From Felis catus (taxonomy: Eukaryota): a stretch of DNA of 64,000 nt. Under the pieces are notes generated by a model that had not been told where the DNA came from, made no database searches, and saw only the letters and a list, made by a program, of their open reading frames with translations. A program made the position numbers and the translations under genes. This document shows, piece by piece, positions 10,500 to 56,600 of the stretch; within the stretch, counting starts at the first letter, position 1, and each line of letters opens with the position of its first letter. The stretch is from positions 91,700,001 to 91,764,000 of the forward strand of contig NC_058368.1 of the NCBI RefSeq assembly GCF_018350175.1, read 5' to 3'.

Positions 10500-10730
10500 A
10501 CTTAAGTGGCACTTACTGAGTGCCTGACACTATTGGGAACACTTTGCCTGAATTAAGTCGCTGAGTCCTGGTGATAACCCCGTGAGGTGAGCACCACTGT
10601 CATTCACTTTACAGATGAGGAAACTGAGGCACAGGGAAGCTTGGTAACTGACCCAAGATCACAGGAGAGTAAATGGTGGGAGCTGGCATTCTATTGCAGA
10701 TAGCCTGGCCCTGGAGTTGGTGCTCTTTAC
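10500..10730 (-). mobile_element. MIR SINE
   Basis: ttacagatgaggaaactgaggcacagggaag…aactgacccaagatcacag (reverse-complement MIR core). Confidence 0.85.
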
Positions 10731-19900: not shown

Positions 19901-21289
19901 TTGTCATCAACAGTGCCACCACCGTAATCATTACTGTTATCCTGGTAAAGATCACGGGCCACTTGGCTGTCCCCCCCCACCCCCCCAGGGACACGGCCTG
20001 GGGACACCAAGGTTACAGGGAAACCCAGTGATTTGAAGAATGGTACCTCTTGGAACCCCACTGGTGTTTTGATGTTCCAGTATGGCGTCCAAGTCCAGAA
20101 ATTCTGGCAGAATCTCTCTGCTGGCTTGCATTTCAGGACCCTGGGATGATCTCTGTGCCCTTGATCTCCAAGGCAAACCTTTTGATAAAGTCTTCCATAA
20201 CTCAAGGGCACAAATGGAAGGCACTGATACCTTCAAAGGGCTACACCACCTTCCTTTGTAGCTACTTCTCTCTCAACCCGAGTATATCTTGGCTTCGAAG
20301 GTAACACAACTGGCCTGGGTACTTTTCCCAAATATTGATGTAAAACATTAGATTCCTCCAGACACTCTCTCCGTGGACACAGGAAGGGAGGGGGCTGGCA
20401 GAGGAAATGTTTGCTGCCCAGATGGGACCCATTCGAGGGGAGGCCACCCAGATGTTCCTGGGTCCATGGGCCTTGATGTTGGTATGGAAGACGCTGGAAG
20501 GAAAGAGCAGCTTCCAAGTAAAAGGGACCAGAGCTAGGAAAACCCGCAGCATTTGGGTAATAAATAAATAGCATGTCGATTATATAAGAAATGACAGCTA
20601 TTGTTTTGAGTCTGCAGGCTGGTTCCTTCTGCAACAGTCAAACGTGTAGCCCAGGGGAACAGCTGTTCTAGTTAGCCCAGGATAATATGGGTTTGTTTCC
20701 ATGTCCCAAACCCTCAGTGAATTCTCCTGACTGCCCCCCCACCCCCACTGCCGTCCCCACGCCTGCCCACCGGCCCCAGGCTTCTTGGCAACCCATTGGT
20801 TCTTCTGGCCAAACTCTGGTATCTTCCCACCTCACATGTAAAACTCCTGAACAGGGCTCAGAGAGAGCTTTCATGTCTAATGCCCCAGTGGGGTTCGCTG
20901 GTGTCTGCCAGGGTACCCACAGGCAGCCTCTGGCTCAACTGGGTCAAACCTCGCCAGACCCCCAGCCCCGGCTGCTTCCCTGCCTACTCTCCCCATAGCT
21001 GGGGTCTCCCTCCCCACCTCCACCCCATCTGTGTTCCCAGCTACGTCCAGGCCCTGAGACCTCCCAGCCAAAATGAGGGGCCTGAGACTGTGCTCCTCTG
21101 ATAACTGGCATCTGCCCCCTCACCTGTAGTTCCCTCTGGGCCTCAGTTTCCTTAGCCATGAAATGGGCACGATCATTCCTACCTCATAGGCATGAGCCTC
21201 TAAGTGGCAAATATCACCCAAGGGAATCAATATACCAAACCGTCTTACCCTGTAAAACAAATGACTTCCCTGCTGTACTTTAAAAGTTT

Positions 21290-21481
21290 TCTTCTTTTTT
21301 TAAAAAAATGTTTATTTATTTATTTCTGAGTGAGCGAGCGAGAGAGAATGAGAATCCTAGTCAGGGAGCGTGCTGTCAGCACGGAGCCGGACGCAGGGCT
21401 CCATTTTACGAACTGCAAGATTATGACCTGAGCCAAAACCAAGAGTCAGATGCTTAACTGACCGAGCCACCCAGGCGCCCC
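21290..21481 (-). mobile_element. CanSINE
   Basis: Head ccacccaggcgcccc ends at about 21481. Confidence 0.92.
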
Positions 21482-22269
21482 TAAATGTTTGCTTCTTATT
21501 TTATGTTCTTTTGGGAAGAGAAAGAAGGCGGGGTGGGGGGATATGTGGATGGTTGTAAACATACATGTTTTCACTTGAAGAGGGGCTCAGGCTGTTTTGC
21601 ATTTTTGTGAGGAGGCTTCAGATGTGTCCTTCAATTAGGCAACAGGCACAGTGATTAAACCGCTCTTCCCTTTGGGCCAAACTGTCTAAAACACCTACTG
21701 GCGTCTAATAAGGAGGCATGAAATACACTCTTTGGGGGACGATTCTGCTTCCACTGTCTGCTTTCCATTTAAACAAGCCATTTGTTTGCATGCAAGATGG
21801 TTTACTGGGCTGCACGAGTGAGTCAGTGCCCTGCATGAGTACGGGTAACACTGGAAGGTTCTGCTCAGATGTGTCTCTGGTTTGAGCCAGTCCAGCCACC
21901 CTGCCTCTGCTCAAGGGTTGATGCTTTTCCCCCAGAGCCCAGGTGCTGCTTCTCCCGCTCAGAGCTCGGTGATCCTCGAGATGACTTAATGCTTTGGTTG
22001 TTTTCTGAATCCTCGGGTTGCCTGGAAAACAACTTCTTCCAGTAAAAGAAGATAAAAGTGCTTAACGGGAATGTCAACATTCGCTCAGCCTTTTATGGCC
22101 CTTCGCTGTTTAGAAAATGCAGTGCAGCCATGATGGCTTAGAAAACCCAAACACTAGCCCTGAGAGGGAGGAGGCACGGATATCCTGTTAACCCCACTAT
22201 ATGGATGGGCAAAGTAAGGCTCGGAGGAGGGGAGTGACACAGGTAGAAGCTAATCATGTTAGAACAGGA

Positions 22270-22470
22270 CTTCTGATTATCTGACACCCTGGGTTCAAGT
22301 CCTGGCTGTGCCTCTTGGTATTTGAGAGCTTAGAGAGGTATTAAGTCATTTGAGCCCCATTTTTTTCATCTGTGTAACAGAGAAGTTGATAATGCCTGCT
22401 TTCAAGGGAGAGTTGGATGACATTGCACATTGAAAGTCCCTTAGGATGGGAGCTGGCATTGTTCTTGCTA
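22270..22470 (+). mobile_element. MIR SINE
   Basis: cctgggttcaagtcctggct…tttttcatctgtgtaacag. Confidence 0.7.
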
Positions 22471-22642
22471 AGACTATTATTTAATAATAATTACCATCAT
22501 TATTATTCTTGCTACGTCAGAGGCAAAGAGGCAGGTGCCCAAGCAGCCCCGCCCACATTGTTGGCAAGTACCATGGGTGCATACAGAGCACTTACGCTGC
22601 CCAGAGATGGCTGGAAGTTACTGCAATGTGCGTGGAGTTGGG

Positions 22643-23208
22643 TATGGCAGGCAGGGTCCTGATGGTCCCCAAGATTCCTGCCCCTTGGTGTGCAACTCTG
22701 TGATCCCTTCCCCTGAGAGTGGGCAGAACCTGAGAAGGTGGTAGGATGTTACTCCTGGGATTATGTCACATTCGATGGCAAAGGGATTTTGAAGATGGAG
22801 TTGAGGTTACCAGTCAGCTGAGTTGGAGTTAATCAAAGGGAAATTATCGGGGTGGGCCTGACCTCATCACATCAGCCCCTTAAATCTGACTCTAGAAGTA
22901 GAGCCAAGAAGAAGTCAGAGGGATCTGAAGCATGAGATGTCTTTGGGGAGAGCCACATGGCCTCTAGGAGCTAAGAGTGGTCCCTCAGGCCAACATCCTA
23001 CAACCTCAGGGAACTGATTTCCGTCAACAACCATGGGCACTTGGCCCCTGAGCTTCAGAAAGGAATGTGATGTCACCTTGATTTCAGCCCTCACAAGGCT
23101 TGCAGTCCTTGAGCAGAGAACCCAGACTTCTGACCTACAGAAACCCTGAGTTAAGTTTTAAGCTGCCAAGCGTGTGGCAATTTGTTGGTAGCAACAGAAA
23201 ACAATGCA
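22643..23208 (+). mobile_element. MaLR solo LTR (MLT1E-like)
   Basis: gatggtccccaagattcctgccccttggtgt…aagggattttgaagatg…aaagggaaattatcggggtgggcctgacctcatca…ttttaagctgccaag…gcaacagaaaac. Confidence 0.8.
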
Positions 23209-23234
23209 ATAAGGCAGAGCCACTGCAGGGTAAC

Positions 23235-23370
23235 TAGCAGTTATGTGTTGCTGCGAACGAATGACCACAAATCTTAAGGACTTAAACTGCATTTAGCATC
23301 TCACAGTTTGAGAGTTAGAAATGCAGGTGCAGCTCTATGGGACGCCTCTCCCTCAGGGTCTCTGCTTGGA
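23235..23370 (-). mobile_element. MaLR LTR fragment (MLT1-like)
   Basis: gttgctgc…accacaaatcttaaggacttaaa…catctcacagttt. Confidence 0.55.
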
Positions 23371-23506
23371 CCCAGCTGTCCTCAGAACTTGGTCCTTCAG
23401 TTAGATTCCTGTTCCAGTGACTCCTCCTCCAGGAGGCCTCCCCGACTTGCTGGCATCCATCACTCTCTGTCTCCCGTATAGCCACTTACTTTTTTTCATG
23501 GTACCT

Positions 23507-23951
23507 GTCGTATGTTGAATTGCATCCCTCCCAAAGGCATGTTGAAGTCCTAACCACTGCTATGTGTGAATGGGATCTTATTTGGAAATAAGATCTTTGC
23601 GGATGTGACCAACTTTGTATGGGGGTGGGGGGGCGGGTAGCCTAATGACTGGTGTCTCTAGAAGATGAGAGACATTTAGACACACAGACATGCAGGGGGA
23701 ACACCATGTGACCAACAGAGGCAGAGATCAAAGTGCATCTACAAGCCAAGGAATGCTAAGGGCTGCTGGCCACCACTGGAAACTAGGAGAGGCCAGGAAG
23801 CGTCCTCCTCTAGAGCTTTCAGAGAGAGCATGGCCCTGCTGACACCTTGATTTTGGACTCCCGGCTTCCAGAACCATTAGACAATAAATTTCCGCTGTTT
23901 TAATCTCCAAGTTTGTGCGTATTTGTTATAGCAGCCAAAGGATAATAATAT
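23507..23951 (+). mobile_element. MaLR solo LTR (MLT1C-like)
   Basis: gttgaattgcatccc…catgttgaagtcctaacc…cttatttggaaataag…caagccaaggaatgc…ggccctgctgacaccttgattttggac…tttgttatagcagcc. Confidence 0.85.
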
Positions 23952-23981
23952 AGTACTTTTTACCATCGCTCTTTTTCATCC

Positions 23982-24250
23982 TATGTATATATCTATGTAT
24001 TTATGTATGTATCTATATGTATCTATCCATGTATCTATGTATCTTTCTGTGTTTATGTATCTATCTATGTATCTGTTTATTGTGTATCTATGTATTTATC
24101 TCTGTATCTGTGTATATCTATGGGTGTATCTATGTGTGTTCTATGTATCTATCTATGTATTTATGTATCTGTGTATCTTTCTGTGTTTATCTATGTGTCT
24201 ATGTATCTATGTATCTAATTATCTATGTATCTGTATCTATCTATCCTATG
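23982..24250. repeat. Degenerate (TATC/TATG/TGTA)n compound microsatellite
   Basis: About 270 bp of mixed tatc/tgta/tgtg tetramers. Confidence 0.9.
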
Positions 24251-25339
24251 GTTTATAGTTTATAGTCTGTGTTTCCCACTGGCATTAAGTTTCTTGCGAA
24301 CAGTTGACTTTTTTTGTTTCCAGTGCCACCCCTGTACCTAAATCAGTGCTTGGAACGGGACTTAATAAAAATGTGCTGAGTGAATTGATGAATATTTATT
24401 TAGTTAAAAAGTCTCCATGATATAAATCCTTTCTGTGCCACATGCTTCTACAGTTAAAAAGGGTAAGAAAGAAATATGGTGAGCTCTACTGATCTGTTTC
24501 ATTTTGGATTTATTTTTTAACATCCCACAGAGGGAGAGAAGATACTGAATCTTTAGGAAAAAGATATTTCCAATAAAAACCTCAGACGTGAAATTCAAGA
24601 AAATAATGATTTCGTTATGAATAAGAAAAAGGAACAGAACTATTGAAAATTTATTTTTCATGTAGCCTGCTGCTGTATCATAAACTATTTGTGAGCTAAA
24701 TTCCACTGACCGCCTGGTTTTGGACCAGGATGTAGTTTTGCTGACAAGAGAAAAGGGGACTGGGGAGGGTAACCCTTAAAGTTAATTAGGAAAGAAATTG
24801 ATGGAAAACTCTGACTTTTGAGGGGCTCCTGTGAAAATCTGATGAAAGCTAAGGACTTAGACAAAAGTGCCCATTCATGCAAAGCCTCACATGTAGTGTC
24901 AGGGTTTTGAGGATTTGCTGAGGCCTGAGGTTAAGAACTCTTGTTCTGAAGAATCTGTCAAAGCAAGTCCACGTTCCCGACTGGGACTGACCCCAGTCCC
25001 CTTGCTGAAGTACACGTTCTCTTGGCCAAGGGTTAGTTGGGCTAGCGTCTCTACACCCCTTCTTCAGTGCAATAAAAATGGTTCACTCTTATTAAGGGAA
25101 ATGAAATAGTATGAACACAAAATAATCACCTCGTGGTGTTGTTCAGCACCTTTCTTTCAAAGTTCTCAGGGCACTTTTTTAAAGCATCTATGCACAAAAC
25201 CCCATAGGGGTGTGTTGGGTGATAGGGTAGGAGTTGGTGAGCCCCTTCAGGGAGGTTTTGGGGATATAAGGTGTTGTTCATTGGACCGTGGCCTTGACTA
25301 TTCAGAAGTGATGTTAGAAGGAACTGGAAAAACAATACT

Positions 25340-25520
25340 GGCTTTGGGCAGACTCAAAATCCCAGCTCTCCCATTGACACGCTGTGTGATCTTGGGTAAG
25401 TTACTTAACCAGTCTGAGTTTCAGTTTTTCCATCTGTGTAAGAGGAGAATAACAATACTTACCTTTTAGGACTGTTGTGGAAATGAAGAATTACACATCA
25501 CAAGCACAATAGCTGGCACA
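25340..25520 (+). mobile_element. MIR SINE
   Basis: gctgtgtgatcttgggtaagttacttaacc…cagtttttccatctgt…aggactgttgtggaaatgaa. Confidence 0.85.
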
Positions 25521-26690
25521 GGGGCACCTGGGTGGCTCATTTGGCTAAGCACACGACTTCAGCTCAGGTCATGATCTCACAGTTTGTGACTTTGTGCCCC
25601 AAGCTGGGCTCTGTGCTGACAGCTCAGACCTGGAGCCTGCTTCAGATTCTGTGTCTCCCTCTCTCTCTGCCCCTCCCTTGCTCATGCTCTTTCTCTCTCT
25701 CTCAAAAATAAATAAACATGAAAATTTTTTTGAATGAATGAATGAATGAATGAATGAATGAATAAATCAATAAATCTCTCAGACTTTCCCCTCTTCCCAC
25801 CAGCCAGAAGAAACTCTGCTTCTAAAGGGCTGTGGTGGCTCACCTGGGTGGCTCAGTCGGTTAAGCATCCGACTTCGGCTCAGGTCATGAACTCGTGGTT
25901 TGTGAGTTTGAGCCCCGCATTGGGCTCTGTGCTGACAGCTCGGACCCTGGAGCCTGCTTCAGATTCTGTGTCTCCCTCTCTCTCTGCCCCTCCCTTGCTC
26001 ATGCTCTTTCTCTCTCTCTCAAAAATAAATAAACATGAAAATTTTTTTGAATGAATGAATGAATGAATAAATAAATCAATAAATCTCTCAGACTTTCCCC
26101 TCTTCCCACCAGCCAGAAGAAACTCTGCTTCTAAAGGGCTGTGGTGGCTCACCTGGGTGGCTCAGTCGGTTAAGCATCCGACTTCGGCTCAGGTCATGAA
26201 CTCGTGGTTTGTGAGTTTGAGCCCCGCATTGGGCTCTGTGCTGACAGCTCGGACCCTGGAGCCTGCTTCAGATTCTGTGTCTCCCTCTCTCTCTGCCCCT
26301 CCCTTGCTCATGCTCTTTCTCTCTCTCTCAAAAATAAATAAACATGAAAATTTTTTTGAATGAATGAATGAATAAATAAATCAATAAATCTCTCAGACTT
26401 TCCCCTCTTCCCACCAGCCAGAAGAAACTCTGCTTCTAAAGGGCTGTGGTGGCTCACCTGGGTGGCTCAGTCGGTTAAGCATCCGACTTCGGCTCAGGTC
26501 ATGAACTCGTGGTTTGTGAGTTTGAGCCCCGCGTTGGGCTCTGTGCTGACAGCTCGGACCCTGGAGCCTGCTTCAGATTTTTCAGATTTTTTGTGTCCCT
26601 CTCTCTCTGCCCGTCACCTGCTCACATTCTCTCTCTCTCTCTCTCTCAAAAATAAATAAACTTTAAAAAAATTAAAAGAAAAGAAAAGAA
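25521..26690 (+). repeat. Tandem array of four CanSINE units (one A, two B/A chimeras, one B) with a thrice-repeated (GAAT)n + unique spacer; period 305-309 bp
   Basis: cacctgggtggctcagtcgg recurs at 25841, 26150, 26455; spacer aaatctctcagactttcccctcttcccaccagccagaagaaactctgcttctaaagggctgtggtggct occurs three times identically. Confidence 0.97.
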
Positions 26691-27371
26691 AGGCCAGTGA
26701 GAAAAGATGCCTAAGAAAAATAAAACCATGTTTGCATGATGAAGGCTCCCTTTGGGCCTCTGCACAGTGGGCTGGCTGGATGAGACACTCGCAATCTGTC
26801 CCCACGTCCAGGCTAGAAGGTTCTCTCCATTCTAGGACTGTTGGGGAGGCACATCCCACCTCCTGCCATGACCAAGTCTGCATATCAGCAGCCGCCACCG
26901 ACCTGGCCCAGGAGATGGGACGCTTGGCCACTCTGCCTGCAGGTGGGGTGCTCTCTGAGAGGGCAGCAGATGGCAGGGTGTCCCCAGGCTCTGTCAGATG
27001 CTGACAGACACGACACCCATTATGGCTGCCTGCCTTGTGCTTGGCTCACCCAGGGACACTAGGCTGGGGCCTTTGTCCAGGATCCGGGGTGCCGATTGCC
27101 CCATGTCCCGCTCTTCACCCAAGCCTTGGATTCTGGAACTGACACTTCTTCAGAATGTGGCTCCTCCAGCACATGTGCATAGAGTGCATAGAATTTGCAG
27201 AATGTTGTGGGCGGAGAGAAACAATATCTCAGAGTAAGGATGTGAATACTGTCTAGGCAGACGAGGCTGGGAGCAGGGAGGGTTAGACAGGAGGTGGACA
27301 GAGGGAGCCTACTCATGGGCAGTGTCCCAGAAGGAACAAGGGCCTTTCTGCTCATGTTTAAAGTTGAGAAT

Positions 27372-27429
27372 CTTTTTTAAGTTTATTTTTATTTATTTTG
27401 AGAGAGAAAGAAAGAGCTAGTGGGGGAGG

Positions 27430-27473
<44 letters not shown>

Positions 27474-27590
27474 CCCAAGAAGGCTCTGTGCTGTCAGTGC
27501 AGAGCCCGATGCAGGGCTTGAACTCAAGAACCATGAGATGGTGACCTGAGTTGAGGTTAAAAGTTGGACGCTTAACCGACTGAGCCACCT
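27372..27590 (-). mobile_element. CanSINE
   Basis: Body with long (GA)n; TSD aagttgagaat. Confidence 0.93.
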
Positions 27591-27599
27591 GAAGTTGAG

Positions 27600-28126
27600 A
27601 ATTTATCTGCTTCTGGGTTATGTACTCAAAAGAGTTGAAAGCAGGGACCCGAACAGATATTTGCACACCTATGTTTGTAACAGCATTATTGACAGTAGCC
27701 AAAAGGTGGCAGTAACACAAGTGTCCATTGAGGGGTGAAGCAAATGGAATATCATTCCATCTTAAAAAGGAAGGGGATTCTGGCACACGCCACAACAGGG
27801 ATGAACCTTGAGGACACTATATACTAAGTGAAATCAGCCAGTCACAGATGAGGAACCATCTTGTGGTGAGATCCACAAGATCAAAGTAGAAGAGTGATTG
27901 TCAGCGGCTGGGGAAGGGGAGGCATGAAGGGTCATGTGATACAGACAGAGTTTCACTTTTGAAAGAGGGAAAAAGTTCGGGATGGTGGTAATGGCCACAT
28001 TAATGTGAATGGACTTGATGTCAGTGAACTCCTACCTAAAAGTGGTCAACATGGTAAAATTTTTTAAGTTTTTTTTTTAATGTTTCTTTATTTTTGAGAG
28101 AGACAAAGCGTGAGTGGGGGAGGGAC

Positions 28127-28167
<41 letters not shown>

Positions 28168-28342
28168 ATCTGAAGCAGGCTCCAGGCTCTGAGCTGTCAA
28201 CACAGAGCCCCACACAGGGCTCAAACTCACAAACTGTGAGATCATGACCTGAGCTGAAGTCAGATGCTGTTTAACTGACTGAGCCACCCAGGCACCCCCA
28301 AAGTGGTAAATTTTATGTTGTATATATTTTGCCACAATAAAA
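27600..28342 (+). mobile_element. L1 (L1MA/MB-like) 3' end, interrupted by a SINE
   Basis: tttgcacacctatgtttgtaacagcattatt…gatgaaccttgaggacactatatactaagtgaaat…ggtaaattttatgttgtatatattttgccacaataaaa. Confidence 0.85.
28058..28299 (-). mobile_element. CanSINE
   Basis: Full body; TSD-like tggtaaa(a)tttt. Confidence 0.93.
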
Positions 28343-28352
28343 GCATGTTTTA

Positions 28353-28520
28353 AGGGGGGCCAGGGTGGCTCAGTAGGTTAAGCAGCATACTCTTGATTTC
28401 AGCTCGGGTCATGATCTCATGGTTCAGGAGTTTGAGCCGTACATCAGGCTCTGCATGGAGCCTGCTTGGGATTCTCTTTCTCTCTTCTCTCAAAATAAAT
28501 AAATAAACATTAAAAAAATT
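28353..28520 (+). mobile_element. CanSINE
   Basis: ggggggccagggtggctcag head; TSD-like aaaagcat(g/t)ttttaa. Confidence 0.9.
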
Positions 28521-29062
28521 ATCAAAAGCATTTTTAAAGTTGGGGATGTATAAATTAAACATTGGGTCCTGAACACCACAGAGGGGAAACACAGGCTCCA
28601 GGGCCTTGGCCCAGCCCTCCTCTCTGAGCTATAGAGGTGACAGGGTCTTGTCTGGGCTGCAGGGCCACCTGGAGAACCAAGGGAGGTGGCCAGCTCCACT
28701 CCTGGCCCACCTTGGGCTCTCCCCACTGCCAGCCCCTCCCCTCCCCTCGGGCTCCCCGGCACGCCTGGTGTGTTTGCACTGTCACCTGGCTCAGAGGGAT
28801 GGGGTGATACATGGCCCATGAGTGAGATGTGGGCGTGATTTCAGCCACTGTCACAGCGGAGGGAAGAGAGTGTTTTTGAAGCTCAAGGCCAAGTACTGCA
28901 GGGTCTCTCATAGTAGAATGATCCACTGTGAGAGGGTAGGTCTCTCTCCCACCTGTCTGTCCCTCTGAAGTGGGGTAAGGATTAAGTGAAAGGATGCTAT
29001 CCCGTCCCCAGAAGAGTACTACCCCAGAAAGCCCTCAGGGGCCAGTGGAGTCATTGATATTC

Positions 29063-29118
29063 CTTTTTTTTTTTTTTTTAAGTTTATTTTATGATGGAGA
29101 CAGCACGAGTGGGGGAGG

Positions 29119-29166
<48 letters not shown>

Positions 29167-29293
29167 CCCAAGCAGGCTCTGCACTGTCAACACAGAGCCC
29201 GACTTTGGGCTCGAACTCATGAAACTGTGAGATCATAACCTGAGCTGAAACCAAGACTTGGACGCTTAACCGACTGAGCCACCCAGGTGCCCC
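29063..29293 (-). mobile_element. CanSINE
   Basis: Full body; TSD gtcattgatat. Confidence 0.95.
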
Positions 29294-30299
29294 AGGGGTC
29301 ATTGATATGCTTGCATTCACTGTCATCTGCACCGGTTCCCCTCACACGCTGAGTCCTGTCTCCTTCCTCCCCAAACGCAGAACCAAACCAGACAGACTTC
29401 CAGCACCTTCTCCAGCTCCAGCGCCTTCTCCCAAAGCAGGCAATGTGCACCCCCAGGAGAGGTTCTTCCGCGATGCACACACGGGGCATTAAATAACATC
29501 AGCCTACCTTGCAGCACGTTGCCCCGTTCCAGTTCTTTCTCCATGACCTCGAGGAGAAAACCTCACATTGGTGCTGGTGTGTCCCTCACGCTTCTCACTC
29601 CTGCTTGTTCCCCTTTTTCGCAAACGGAGAGTGTAGGCCTCAGACTCTGTGACTCCAGTGGGCTGCGGTGTCTGGTTATAATTGAATAACTTCCTTTCCT
29701 CGTATTTATTTTTAGGGCTTCTTTCTATTTTTGGCAAGTGTAACTGGTTTTCTATTTACCGGAGTGTATAACGTTTACTTGTGGAATAACTTAAAAAAAA
29801 AAAAAAAAAAAACACGAATTGGTTTAAACAGAACTCGTCTGCATCCGCCAGACACTGGCCCAGACGTAAGCTCTTCCCTGCGGTTTTCCAGGACGTCCCA
29901 CCCCCACCGTCTGAACGACAGAAGAGCAGGTAGCGGCCGATGTTCGCAGCACATGTCACAGTGTGTGGAAATTGCCTCTTTGTAGGTGTAAAGAATACAC
30001 TTACTTGAGACGGGGAGCAAGACGGGCCACTTCCCTGCCCCCAGTCCCCATCTTGCAGCCAGCCAGGAGCTGTTTGTCATCAGGAGTGTTTGTCACCTCT
30101 AGGCTGCTGGCTGAGAGGGGAGGAAGGATTTCCCCCTTGGGCACAGGGACAGGGTGAGGTCAGCACTCTCTCTCTTTCCCAAAGGCCCCCTTGGTCCAGG
30201 CAGGACCAGGAGACTCCTAAGAATTAATTTAGTCCACGTGGCTCCACTCATCATGTTATGAGATCCTCCAACTTAATCTTGTGTTTTAAAAAAAAAAAA

Positions 30300-30805
30300 A
30301 AAAATTTTTTTTAATGTATTTATTTTTGAGAGAGAGAAAAATCATGATCAGGGGAGGGGCAAAGCGAGAGGGAGACACAGAATCGGAAGCAGTCTCCAGG
30401 CTCTGAGCTGTCAGCACAGAGCCCGACACGGGGCTCGAACTCTCAAGCCGTGAGATCATGACCTGAGCCGATGTCTGATGCTGCTTAACTGAGCCACCCA
30501 GGCACCCCGACTTAATCTTGTAACAGTAACTAGTGTATTACTACAGGTCTATGGCATTTCACATCTCCTACCTTTTCTCCTCCTTTTCCTCCTCCTCCTC
30601 CTTCTCCGTTTGTTTATTTTTGAGAGACACACACACAGAGCATGAGTAGGGGAGGGGCAGAGAGAGGGAGACACAGAATCTAAAGCTGGCTGCAGGCTCT
30701 GAGCTGTCAACACAGAGGCTCACACAGGGCTCGAACCCACGAACCTTGAGATCATGACCTGAGCCGAAGTTGGCTGCTTAACTGACTGAGCCACCCAGGC
30801 GCCCC
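30300..30805 (-). mobile_element. Two co-oriented CanSINEs (30300-30508, 30608-30805)
   Basis: Two full bodies; the first has TSD acttaatcttgt. Confidence 0.93.
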
Positions 30806-31480
30806 TCATACCTTTTATCACACCTATTCTTTTATTTATTCTTCAAAATAAGCCCTCAGTGGAGGGACTCTTATCCCCATTTTACAGCCAGGGAAACTGA
30901 GGCTCAAGCTTGCCCCACAGTCATGCAGCTGGAATAGGGACACACTGCCATGTTCCACTTTCTGTACCCTTTCGGCTGCCCCACTTTGGCTGCTGTGTCA
31001 CCAGCTGACCTTCAGACATGGCTGTCCCCCACCTGGCCTGGAGGGCTTGGTGCTGCTTTGATAGCCCCTCCCACTGGGCGGAGGTGTTATGTATGGATCT
31101 TCTGCAGAAGCACACTCACCTCCCATGGACTGTGTCCGTGGCTCTGATGTCATCCTGTGTGGCCAAGAGGCAGCAGGTGCAGGGCCACTCCCTCCACCCC
31201 CTTCCCCAGCTCTAAGGACCCAGAAAACAACCTGCTTGGCCTATGGACTGGCAAGACCAGAAGGAGCGGGTCCCTGACACCTGGCCTGGGGATGACGGTG
31301 CTGGCTTGTCGTGCACACTCCAGCCTGGAAGGTGCTAAGCTGGGCCTGTCTCAGGTTTCTGCCACTGTGGCTGCTGTGTCCTTAAGCACTGGGACCCTTC
31401 AGCCTGGGGAGCCTCAGAATGATCACACGAAGAAAGGTTGGCACTTTCCTTTGTGATAGCTATAGAAAAAAAAAAAACAG

Positions 31481-31697
31481 CTTTTTTTTTTTTAAGTTTA
31501 TTTATTTATTTTGAGAGACAGAGTGAGCATGAGTGGAGGAAGGGTGGAGCGAGAGGGAGAGAGTGAGAGACTCCCAAGCAGGTTCCACACTATCAGCACA
31601 GAGTCTGATACGGGGCTCCAACTCACGAACGATGAGATCATGACCTGAGTGGAAACCAAGAGGTGGCCATTTAACAGACTGAGCCACCCAGGTGCCC
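31481..31697 (-). mobile_element. CanSINE
   Basis: Full body. Confidence 0.92.
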
Positions 31698-31714
31698 TTA
31701 CCTCAGCTTTTTAT

Positions 31715-31940
31715 AAGAAAGAAAAGAAAAGAAAAGAAAAGAAAAGAAAAGAAAAGAAAAGAAAAGAAAAGAAAAGAAAAGAAAAGAAAAGAAAGAAAAA
31801 AGAAAGAAAGGGGGAGGGAAGAAGGAAGGAAGGAAGGAAGGAAGGAAGGAAGGAAGGAAGGAAGGAAGGAAGGAAGGAAAGAAGGAAGGAAGGAAAGAAG
31901 GAAGGAAGGAAGGAAGGAAGGAAGGAAAGGAGAAAAAAAA
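31715..31940. repeat. Pure polypurine compound microsatellite (GAAAA)n-(GGAA)n
   Basis: About 226 nt with no pyrimidine on the + strand. Confidence 0.97.
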
Positions 31941-32040
31941 CCTATTATGACAATGCTGATGGCTAGTAAGCAGTGTTGCCCGTGCCCAAGGTATACCTGC
32001 TCATCTCATCCTCCCACAGTGTGGGTCTTGTTGATGTTCC

Positions 32041-33658: not shown

Positions 33659-34676
33659 AGTTACCTACTTACCACATTACACCCCGCATCCCTCTGGAAT
33701 GTGGCCCCCATGAGGGCAGGCTGTTTGCAGTTCTGTTCACTGCTGTGGTCCCAGCACCAAGGGGCTCAGATCATGCTAGAGAGAGTATGCTGGGGGCTGG
33801 GGGCGGCCAGAAGGCACACCCAGGCCAGACAAGGCCTCTTCTTCTGCCTTCAGGCGAGCTGGGTGGGGGCCATAGGCGGGGCTCAGCCAGCAGGCCTGCT
33901 CCAGGGCAATGTCAGCGGGGGTTATCTGTGGCTGTGTGAAGAATGCTTTTAAACTGGTGCCTGGGTTCCTGACCTCCCAAGAGAGAAAACAGATGCACGC
34001 TTTAACCCCTTCTTGCTCCAGGAGGAGCCCAGCCTGTAAGGTTTTAAGGAGTCTAGCTCAAGCTAGAGAATTTCTGGCCTTTGGACCCTAAGGGTTAATG
34101 AGAGCCTGGTGCTCCCAGGACCAAATCTTCTAATTCCCAGAACTAACAGCAGGATCTCTGAACCCCAGTCCTCGGAAGCCTGTCACCTGTCAGGGTCTCA
34201 TTAACAACTGGAAGGCCCACCCGTGCTTCCCAGAGGGTTCGATGTATACACCACGCGGGTCATGGAGGTGGAAGTACTGTTTTCTTTTGCCACTGGGAGG
34301 TCAGGAGCACCTCAGAAGACCACTCTGCACCTGGCTGGGCTTTGGATATGCTTTTTAAATCGAATTAACTCTTTTCAGGGCTCTCCTCAAAGCCTCTGCT
34401 TCAGTATTGTTTACAATAACGTATTAAATACACAGGCCACCTTGTCGTTTGCCATATGATGTTTTGGAAGGAGACTGAGCTTAAGCTGAATACTTCTGTT
34501 CAAGTGCAGCTGCTGCTGTGTGACCTTGGGCAACTCACTTAAACTCTCTGCGCTGTTTCCTGGTCTTCAAAACCCTGCTGCATGGAGCTGTTATCAGGCC
34601 GAGGGGACACTGGGGATCTGCAGACCTAGCTTCCGAGCCAGTTTTGTTTTGTTTAAAAGAGCGTTTTAAAGTATTT

Positions 34677-39342: not shown

Positions 39343-39557
39343 GTTTTTTTCTAAATTATGTTTTATTTTATATTTGAGAGAGAGAGAGCATGCCTGAGCA
39401 GGGGAGGGACAGAGAGCGAGAAACACAGAGTCTGAAGCAGGCTTCCAGGTTCTGAGCTGTCAGCACAGAGACCGATGCAGGGCTCGAGCTCACGAGCAGT
39501 GAGATCACGACCTGAGCCGAAGTCGGACGTTTTACAGACTGAGCCACCCAAGTGCCC
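39343..39557 (-). mobile_element. CanSINE
   Basis: Full body. Confidence 0.93.
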
Positions 39558-39584
39558 AGCTTTTTTTTTAAAAAAGCTTGTATG

Positions 39585-39814
39585 GGGGCGCCTGGGTGGC
39601 GCAGTCGGTTAAGCATCTGACTTCAGCCAGGTCACGATCTCGCGGTCCGGGAGTTCGAGCCCCGCGTCGGGCTCTGTGCTGATGGTGGCTCAGAGCCTGG
39701 AGCCTGTTTCCGATTCTGTGTCTCCCTCTCTCTCTGCCCCTCCCCCGTTCATGCTCTGTCTCTCTCTGTCCCAAAAAGAAATAAACGTTGAAAAAAAAAT
39801 TAAAAAACAAAAAT
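39585..39814 (+). mobile_element. Young felid SINE (SINEC_Fc-type)
   Basis: Diagnostic ggtggcgcag…cagccaggtcacgatctcgcggtcc…gtttccgattc…gtcccaaaaa…aaacgttgaaaa; perfect TSD aaaagcttgtatg (39572, 39815). Confidence 0.96.
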
Positions 39815-43689: not shown

Positions 43690-44141
43690 TTTGTTAAAAA
43701 CTTTTAAATGTTTATTTATTCTTTTTAAGTTTTTTTAACGTTTATTTATTATTGAGAGGCAGAGAGAGAGCATTAGCTTGGGAGGGGCAGAGAGAGGAGG
43801 AGACACAGAATCCGAAGGAGGCTTCAGGCTCTGAGCTGTTAGCACAGAGCCCGACGTGGGGCTTGAACTCACAAACCCAGCGAGATCATGACCTGAGCTG
43901 AAGTCAGCCGCTCAACTGACTGAGCCACCCAGGCACCCCAAATGTTTATTTATTCTTGAGAGAGAGACAGAGCATGAGTGGGGAGGGGCAGAGAGAGAGG
44001 GAGACACAGAATCGGAAGCAGGCTCCAGGCTCCCAGCTGTCAACACGGAGCCTGATTGCGGGGCTCAAATGCACGAACCACCGTGAGATCATGACCTGAG
44101 CCCAAATCAGACACTTAACTGACTGAGCCACCCAGGTGCCC
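43690..44141 (-). mobile_element. CanSINE nested in the tail of another CanSINE
   Basis: 18-bp TSD aaatgtttatttattctt at 43706 and 43940. Confidence 0.95.
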
Positions 44142-44400
44142 TTAGACAGTTTTAGGTCTATTTAGAATTGTCTTTGGGATGAGGAATCAGAGAGTTCTAG
44201 TGTTTTTCTTACTGATCTGCAAGATCTTTTTAATATCTTAAGGATGGTGATCCTTTATGTTTGTTGCAAATGTTTTCCTCATTTTTTCATTTGCGTTTTG
44301 ATATTTATGTTTTTTTAATGTATATAATTTGAAAATTTTAAATACAGCATATTTGTTGATCTGTTTGTTTCATTGTTTTCATGTTTAGAAAGTCACAGCT

Positions 44401-44626
44401 GGGGCGCCTGGGTGGCGCAGTCGGTTAAGCCTCCGACTTCAGCCAGGTCACGATCTCGCGGTCCGTGAGTTCGAGCCCCATGTCGGGCTCTGGGCTGATG
44501 GCTCAGAGTCTGGAGCCTGTTTCCGATTCTGTGTCTCCCTCTCTCTCTGCCCCTCCCCCGTTCATGCTCTGTCTCTCTCTGTCCCAAAAATAAATAAACG
44601 TTGAAAAAAAAAATTAAAAAAAAAAA
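44401..44626 (+). mobile_element. Young felid SINE (SINEC_Fc-type)
   Basis: Same young diagnostics, long A tail, perfect TSD aaagtcacagct (44389, 44627). Confidence 0.96.
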
Positions 44627-45129
44627 AAAGTCACAGCTGATATCGGTTGAATGTTTACCTCTCTGTCCTTCCTTCTAGTTTGTACAAGGCTTCATTTATT
44701 TTTCCACCTTTATTATTCATTCCCTCTTAGTACAAAAGGAATACGTGTTTGCTACAGAATTATAAAAGCTTAGGGAAAGCAGCGAGGGCTTCATTTATGT
44801 GTTTAACTTCTTTAAATCTGTAATTTGTTGGGATATATGGAGCAAGGAGAAAATCTGACTTGAAGGTCTTCCAAATAACTAGTTAAGCCAACACGATCTG
44901 TTTTCTCCTGTATTATGTAGTTTAGTTCACATCTTTGTTTTTCCAAATCTGTACCAATGCCAATTTGTTTAAATTCATGTGGTTATGTAATACTCCTTAA
45001 CAATTCAAGTCACTTTCTGGTTACATTTCCTTTTCAAGAATGCCATCGCTGTTCTTGTATGTTTATTGTCTAAATATACATGGGAATTATTTTGTCAAGT
45101 TAAACCAATGATATATTGATTGGCATGAC

Positions 45130-48389: not shown

Positions 48390-48732
48390 ATTTTTTTTTT
48401 TAAATATTCTTTTTTTTTTTTTCAACGTTTACTTATTTTTGGGACAGAGAGAGAGACAGAGCATGAACGGGGGAGGGGCAGAGAGAGAGGGAGACACAGA
48501 ATCGGAAACAGGCTCCAGGCTCCGAGCCATCAGCCCAGAGCCTGACGCGGGGCTCGAACTCATGGACCGCGAGATCGTGATCTGGCTGAAGTCGGACGCT
48601 TAACCGACTGTGCCACCCAGGCGCCCCTTTTTTAATTTTAAGTAGGCTCCACTCCCAACGTGGGACTTGAACATCATGACTCTGAGATCAAGAGTCACAC
48701 TTGCTACCAGCTGAGCCATCCACGCAACCCCC
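48390..48732 (-). mobile_element. Young SINEC_Fc-type copy (to 48626) inserted in the tail of a short older SINE (48627-48732)
   Basis: ttcaacgtt…gggacagaga…aatcggaaaca…catcagcccag…atctggctgaag diagnostics, followed by a second head. Confidence 0.9.
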
Positions 48733-56136: not shown

Positions 56137-56600
56137 GGGGCACCTCAGTGGCTCAGTTGATTGAGCATCTGACTCTTGATTTCGGCTCAGATCATGATCC
56201 CAAGGTCATGGGATTGAGCCCCGGGTCGGGCTTTGTGATGAGTGTGGAACCTGCTTAAAATCATCTCTCCCTATGGGGCGCCTGGGTGGCGCAGTCGGTT
56301 AAGCGTCAGACTTCAGCCAGGTCACGATCTCGCGGTCCGTGAGTTCGAGCCCCGTGTCGGGCTCTGGGCTGATGGCTCGGAGCCTGGAGCCTGTTTCCGA
56401 TTCTGTGTCTCCCTCTCTCTCTGGCCCTCCCCCGTTCATGCTCTGTCTCTCTCTGTCCCAAAAATAAATAAACGTTGAAAAAACTTAAAAAAAAAAAAAT
56501 CATCTCTCCCTCTCTCTCTGCCCCTCCCCCCAACTCATGCATGCGTGCGCTCTCACTCTCTGTCTCTCTCTCTCTCTCTCTATCTCTAAAAAATAAATTG
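56137..56600 (+). mobile_element. Older CanSINE split by a young SINEC_Fc-type copy (56275-56495)
   Basis: 16-bp TSD aaaatcatctctccct at 56257 and 56496. Confidence 0.95.

Follow-up and report, generated by a model that had tools for sequence, protein, structure and literature searches.

The 64-kb stretch of DNA analysed here (the window) contains a tandem array built from two SINEs, A and B, and the sequence between them. The array consists of three copies of a segment that runs from the 3' half of SINE A through a GAAT microsatellite and a 69-bp unique spacer into the 5' half of SINE B, and the joints between the copies are in register. We propose, with a probability of roughly 60%, that a single A-spacer-B ancestor gave rise in two steps to the three copies of ~310 bp and, with them, to two full-length chimeric SINEs that combine a B 5' half with an A 3' half.

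Four SINE units, all on the plus strand and thus co-oriented, occupy positions 25522-26688 (see the table), with unit anchors at 25525, 25841, 26150 and 26455. Tandem Repeats Finder describes the array as 3.7 copies of a 309-bp period. The core-to-core segments D1, D2 and D3 differ from one another only in the microsatellite and at one site, which reads A, A and G, respectively; the difference between 317 and 309 bp corresponds to the loss of three GAAT units and the gain of one AAAT. All three spacer copies are 100% identical, and there is no further full-length match to the spacer elsewhere in the 64-kb window. An earlier note on this DNA had described the array, and the unit positions, the three spacers and the GAAT counts of 8, 5 and 4 all lie where it placed them. 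Its account of the unequal periods by GAAT counts is right about the counts and misses the AAAT units, of which D2 and D3 have two and D1 has one. The 5' end of B (26449-26469; copies at 25835 and 26144) lacks the usual G-run start and contains a short direct repeat of the nine A-box-proximal bases.

Table. Coordinates of the array, its parental and chimeric SINEs and associated features in the window.
Feature	Position	Strand	Remark
SINE A, parental upstream felid-type CanSINE (A 5' and A 3' halves, tail ends in T7)	25522-25731	+	single-copy depth of A-5' contig
20-bp core shared by A and B, junction interval	25629-25648; copies 25946-25965, 26255-26274, 26560-26579	+	
Duplicated segment D1, 317 bp, A at 25919	25629-25945	+	(GAAT)8(AAAT)1
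Duplicated segment D2, 309 bp, A at 26228	25946-26254	+	(GAAT)5(AAAT)2
Duplicated segment D3, 305 bp, G (intact CpG) at 26533	26255-26559	+	(GAAT)4(AAAT)2
Unique 69-bp spacer, copy 1	25772-25840; identical copies 26081-26149, 26386-26454	+	
Chimeric SINE 1 (B 5' half, A 3' half), full length, in register	25835-26048	+	
Chimeric SINE 2	26144-26357	+	both halves identical to chimera 1
SINE B, parental downstream CanSINE, AAAAG tail	26449-26688	+	single-copy depth of B-3' contig
9-bp tandem micro-duplication private to B, start inside junction core	26572-26589	+	absent from A and both chimeras
Candidate left TSD of B, weak	26438-26448	+	9/11 match with 26689-26699

The two middle units are divided between the parental SINEs at the core. 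At sites where A and B differ, the middle units agree with B at 17 of 17 positions 5' of the core and with A at 16 of 16 positions 3' of it (Fisher p = 9e-10 for the partition), which is the clean B-5'/A-3' division that the earlier note had expected of a four-unit alignment. Compared base by base, they differ from the 5' half of B at 1 of 105 positions, the A/G site (25919, 26228 and 26533 in the three copies), and from the 3' half of A at none of 86. They carry mutations of A and B that are absent from all 33 other near-full-length SINE copies in the window, and each has the left flank of B and the right flank of A. The junction falls in the best patch of A-B homology, where perfect tracts of 21 and 20 bp are separated by two differences; the 21-bp tract is the longest perfect match between the two elements. 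At the A/G site, G is the majority allele, present in 20 of the 33 other copies, and D1 and D2 carry A.

The 33 other copies provided a background of 528 pairs, whose mean pairwise identity is 79% for 5' halves and 71% for 3' halves; the most similar pair reaches 96% and 99%. The corresponding values for A and B are 84% and 71%. Both A and B lie 10% from the local majority, and the middle units lie 7% from it. Being as divergent as unrelated copies, and each at this distance from the majority, A and B are independent insertions; the same distance places their origin long before the amplification. Immediately 5' of the core, A and B are both missing the majority G. We considered gene conversion as the cause of this shared absence and judged the coincidence to be chance over ~190 sites.

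We take the four units to be CanSINEs on the basis of their anatomy and a published description. The unit anatomy, with a tRNA-like head, a CT repeat and an A/T tail, fits feliform CanSINEs as they are presented in the accessible text of that description (PMC4084570). A, B and chimera 1 all lack the subfamily I motif given there. Of the 7 bases of the subfamily II motif, B and chimera 1 have 6; none of the three elements matches it in full, and A shows no such match.

TSDs give limited guidance on the ancestral arrangement. No recognisable TSD was found at SINE A, whose score of 6 is at null level (nulls 1-24, where 24 is a chance match near 2497). B scores 12 (nulls 1-13), a value reached by 2 of 33 mismatched control pairs, and 29 of the 33 other SINE copies score at least 15. 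Pairing the flanks of a middle unit gives 3, and the A5'/B3' pairing, of the sequences upstream of A and downstream of B, gives 6, again null level, so that no TSD brackets the array. TSDs thus lean only slightly towards B as an intact element and do not fix the ancestral state. Because A has no TSD and that of B is weak, the parental elements may have an earlier history of their own; in A, the missing TSD could reflect a small target-site deletion or a rearrangement of older date. The left flank at 25330-25521, which resembles an old MIR-type repeat, ends at SINE A, and weak matches to it occur at 10611-10690 and 34515-34550.

As far as our tests reach, the locus is intergenic or deep intronic. 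Pfam gave no matches in 257 of 266 stop-to-stop frames of at least 60 aa lying mostly outside SINEs (9 simple-repeat frames were excluded), in a scan that left out 210 frames of 45-59 aa and could miss short exons. Rfam gave none within 20000-32000, and the window has no CpG-rich 1-kb bin. The array most likely represents neutral non-coding variation, and nothing links it to a gene or function. SINE-like sequence makes up about 21% of the window. Three other co-oriented SINE pairs in the window, with gaps of 89-255 bp, have formed no such array. On the minus strand at 43734-44138, two SINEs that are 82% alike stand head to tail with no spacer, and the downstream copy has its own 18-bp TSD derived from the tail of the first, which marks a serial insertion. 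In each of two inverted pairs (2482-2927 and 39350-39797), the SINEs stand head to head, 27 bp apart. Four copies at 39585-39813, 44400-44628, 48407-48627 and 56274-56499 are 93-96% identical, with clean TSDs in three, and form a young subfamily. A degenerate CTAT/CTATGTAT compound microsatellite of ~270 bp (23981-24250) lies 1.3 kb upstream of the array.

Sequencing depth in other animals makes an assembly artefact unlikely. The stretch is contained in 24 public runs from one organism and 9 studies, and we examined contig depth in four of them (X1, X2, X12 and X22). Depth was taken only from individual listed contigs with a perfect match to the locus; other SINE copies swamp the binned depth, the joints and the loose ends, and these were discarded. 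X1, X2 and X12, which come from three studies, are among the top runs for the words of the window and are in that sense a biased pick. In these runs, the 1,720-nt left-flank contig has depths of 33.1, 41.1 and 24.6, respectively, and the spacer contig stands at 3.30, 3.67 and 2.59 times the flank. These values are per-contig mean word depths rather than read depths, and the spacer contig, of 90-98 nt, includes 28-29 SINE bases, as it runs unbroken into the start of the B 5' half. The A-5' contig is at 0.91-1.10 of flank depth and the B-3' contig at 1.11-1.22. In simulations of Poisson sampling, spacer depth exceeds the one-copy expectation by 8 to 20 SD and the two-copy expectation by 2 to 9 SD, and both control contigs lie within 1.5 SD of one copy. 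The pattern in the three studies agrees with the prediction of one A 5' half, three spacers and one B 3' half, and it stands without X1, a possible source sample. Given its presence in three studies, the array appears to be common rather than private.

The fourth run, X22, has a left-flank contig at depth 45.9 and the A-5' contig; the spacer contig, which has three places in the array, and the B-3' contig are absent among its 8 listed contigs. Because the records are filtered, a gap of this kind is not informative, and we counted this run neither way. Both of its contigs that cover 25518 read G for A there, so that its left-flank haplotype differs from that of the window. Long contigs are missing from the right flank (26664-27000) in all four runs, and none of the 8 contigs listed per run crosses the B5'/A3' junction or the array.

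The same depths offer a hint, which is not a demonstration, of copy-number polymorphism among X1, X2 and X12. The best-fitting numbers of copies per haploid genome are 3-3.5, 3.5 and 2.5, and homogeneity of the three spacer ratios has a p value of 0.017-0.046 under Poisson sampling only, with read length assumed and bias not modelled. The suggestion in the earlier note that the locus is a VNTR still varying in copy number finds a marginal depth difference in its favour, and at p 0.02-0.05 it is weaker than originally put. The share of the window's words is 0.88-0.91 in 19 of the 24 runs, 0.80 in one and 0.66-0.69 in four. In models, a one-copy allele gives a share of 0.92-0.93, two copies give 0.97-0.99, an A-B deletion gives 0.66-0.67 and the absence of B gives 0.71. 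We treat these shares as a lead and not as evidence: the top shares cannot separate one copy from three, the low shares have several explanations, and contig depth comes from only 4 of the 24 runs. One could envision, as a tentative and rather doubtful extension, a SINE-seeded minisatellite caught at birth, common and with many alleles, with 0-4 spacer copies segregating in one cat species, A-B deletion products among the alleles and both parental SINEs intact. If this were true, one could follow in full how two dispersed SINEs became a VNTR and use pedigrees to measure its mutation rate; any polymorphism in copy number would make the locus a small natural model for the onset of a VNTR.

From the structure, the junction interval and the multi-copy spacer depth in other animals, all of which are observed, we infer the ancestor, the order of events and the repair pathway. 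In the first step, a DNA end or stalled fork in the 20-bp core of B would have annealed to the core of A, ~310 bp upstream. A microhomology-guided, MMBIR-like template switch would then have recopied the A 3' half, the spacer and the B 5' half, leaving two copies and one chimera. One copy may next have taken the CpG G-to-A change. In the second step, the ~99%-identical 310-bp copies could have mispaired, through unequal crossover or slippage, to add the third copy. This mutate-then-recopy order is the simplest because D1 and D2 share the derived A and D3 keeps the CpG G; this one CpG transition is the sole basis for ordering the two steps. D2 combines the microsatellite ending of D3 with the A of D1. 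Such a mix is expected from an unequal D3-D1 exchange within the spacer region, and a later private change in the D1 microsatellite fits as well.

For the first step, a comparison of the two elements makes a microhomology template switch more likely than classical unequal crossover. Classical NAHR is doubtful here because no perfect A-B match exceeds 21 bp, and more than 100 bp of perfect identity is needed according to the accessible part of PMC9675761. The second step has such a tract (D1 and D3 are identical in alignment columns 131 to 290). Junctions of the type seen here are attributed preferentially to SSA, MMBIR or MMEJ in the same part of that paper, and among these, replicative template switching would be the one that yields a gain. 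Sequence alone cannot name the repair pathway. The earlier note had proposed a chimera made by homologous crossover and then duplicated again. Its in-register B5'/A3' junction and its re-amplification are upheld by the full partition of informative sites; its crossover, as the first step, does not sit well with a 21-bp tract.

D1 and D3 differ at 1 of ~265 non-microsatellite sites (0.4%, 95% range 0.01-2.1%). At 0.86e-8 per generation and 3.8 years, values available to us from part of 10.1101/2021.04.06.438608 and used on the assumption of a cat-like rate, the amplification would be ~0.8 million years old (range 0.02-4.6). This estimate is probably biased old because the differing site is a CpG.

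Other origins of the array can be weighed against the two-step template-switch reading. Meiotic unequal crossover, with A of one homologue or sister chromatid mispaired with B of the other, would yield exactly this in-register chimera and, as its reciprocal product, an A5'/B3' deletion allele. A and B share ~200 bp of homeology at roughly 80%, and a cross of two haplotypes could introduce the A/G difference together with those in the microsatellite. However, the perfect tract falls short of the length needed, and most such events are likely RAD51-independent in the text of PMC9675761 open to us. We regard this origin as unlikely. Alternatively, a single event could have produced all three copies, either by repeated fork slippage from the B core to the A core or by a ~310-bp circle that was excised, rolled and reintegrated, with the 9-bp duplication in B as the scar of a last short slip. 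Both junctions are indeed identical, and the duplication starts inside the junction core. Yet such an event requires that one and the same CpG, out of 7, changed independently from G to A twice, that D3 mutated back, or that conversion followed, and we consider it improbable. Micro-duplications beside T runs arise without rearrangement, which counts against reading this one as a slippage scar.

The remaining explanations have little to recommend them. A false tandem duplication or merged haplotypes in the assembly could account for copies that are nearly identical, but the copies bear distinct variants, and the earlier note had tied an artefact to raw long reads with one spacer only. By contig depth, the spacer is at about three times single copy (2.6-3.7x) in three of four runs, representing three studies, with flat single-copy controls; the chance of an artefact is very small. 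It is just as hard to credit that the middle B5'/A3' unit is the original SINE, duplicated with its flank, and that A and B became chimeric later, through two deletions with other SINEs. A convincing TSD is missing from both A and B, and the middle units are nearer the local majority than either, but a TSD is equally missing from the middle unit (score 3) and from the A5'/B3' pairing (6), and B is the best of the four pairings at 12. This history would also need two extra deletions, both switching in the same 20-bp interval. Least probable of all is retrotransposition, whether by serial SINE insertions at one site or by a template-jump concatemer in one insertion. The part of PMC4084570 available to us puts tandem CanSINE arrays by repeated insertion on record, and the window has its own serial-insertion pair at 43734-44138. 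In the array, however, a unique genomic spacer and a microsatellite are copied between units, private mutations of the flanking A and B are shared by the units in a position-dependent way, and a TSD around the array is lacking. The copied spacer and the A/B partition refute both the concatemer and the serial insertion.

We conclude that the locus is an Alu/Alu-type duplication with several copies, mediated by TEs through a known process. Its breakpoints lie in separate TE copies (A and B are at background similarity, and the junction is inside both) in direct orientation, with all four units on the plus strand. The junction consists of full-length in-register chimeras with a 20-bp core, and there are more than two copies with depth support, three in the window and 2.6-3.7 times the flank in three of four runs. 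In these respects it resembles the TEMR-HR mCNVs of PMC9675761, as far as the accessible text describes them: breakpoints in two co-oriented copies of one SINE family, a full-length chimera with microhomology, ~80% similarity and later copy gain. Unlike those cases, the SINE here is a felid CanSINE rather than an Alu, and the unit is mostly SINE. At ~310 bp, the unit is at the short end of the range in that account, where human TEMR duplications have a median of 1,085 bp and all TEMRs span 93-25,425 bp. The human set includes 33 duplications among 493 events in three genomes, and four TE-flanked higher-order amplifications, one of them a triplication in intron 1 of DNASE1, so TE-flanked triplications are an already described class (PMC9675761, in the same text). 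Our literature search, which had partial coverage and excluded supplements, found no description of this locus or of CanSINE-CanSINE triplications. ~300-bp gains of this kind resemble SINE insertions in short-read variant calls.

Human TEMR and AAMR junctions share direct orientation, ~82% similarity and microhomology mostly below 25-40 bp (PMC9675761 and PMC6071635, from the available portions). As at our locus, AAMR produces a chimeric hybrid at the junction, with microhomology mostly below 25 bp, and template switching has been proposed for it; the portion of PMC6071635 at hand concerns 219 human disease deletions, whereas the event described here is a non-coding gain with no known effect. 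In the cat itself, a tandem duplication in LYST has SINEC_Fc at its central junction, and NAHR was proposed, but that duplication is 20 kb long, exonic and pathogenic, and the SINE at its joint is not separated there into halves from two parents (PMC6952417, accessible text). A preprint, in the part open to us, finds that full-length copies, tRNA-SINEs included, drive SINE-mediated insertions and deletions across vertebrates (PMC13320814); it offers genome-wide tallies, with a median of 1,140 bp. TE-derived tandem repeats are likewise seeded by flanking direct repeats, and such repeats are common (PMC3389668, again from the accessible portion). The array is a clean teaching case, real but ordinary, in which closely spaced CanSINEs act in cats as Alu pairs do in people. 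What sets it apart from these last two surveys, within what their accessible text covers, is that both parental elements survive, so that the origin of the array can be followed at single-base resolution.
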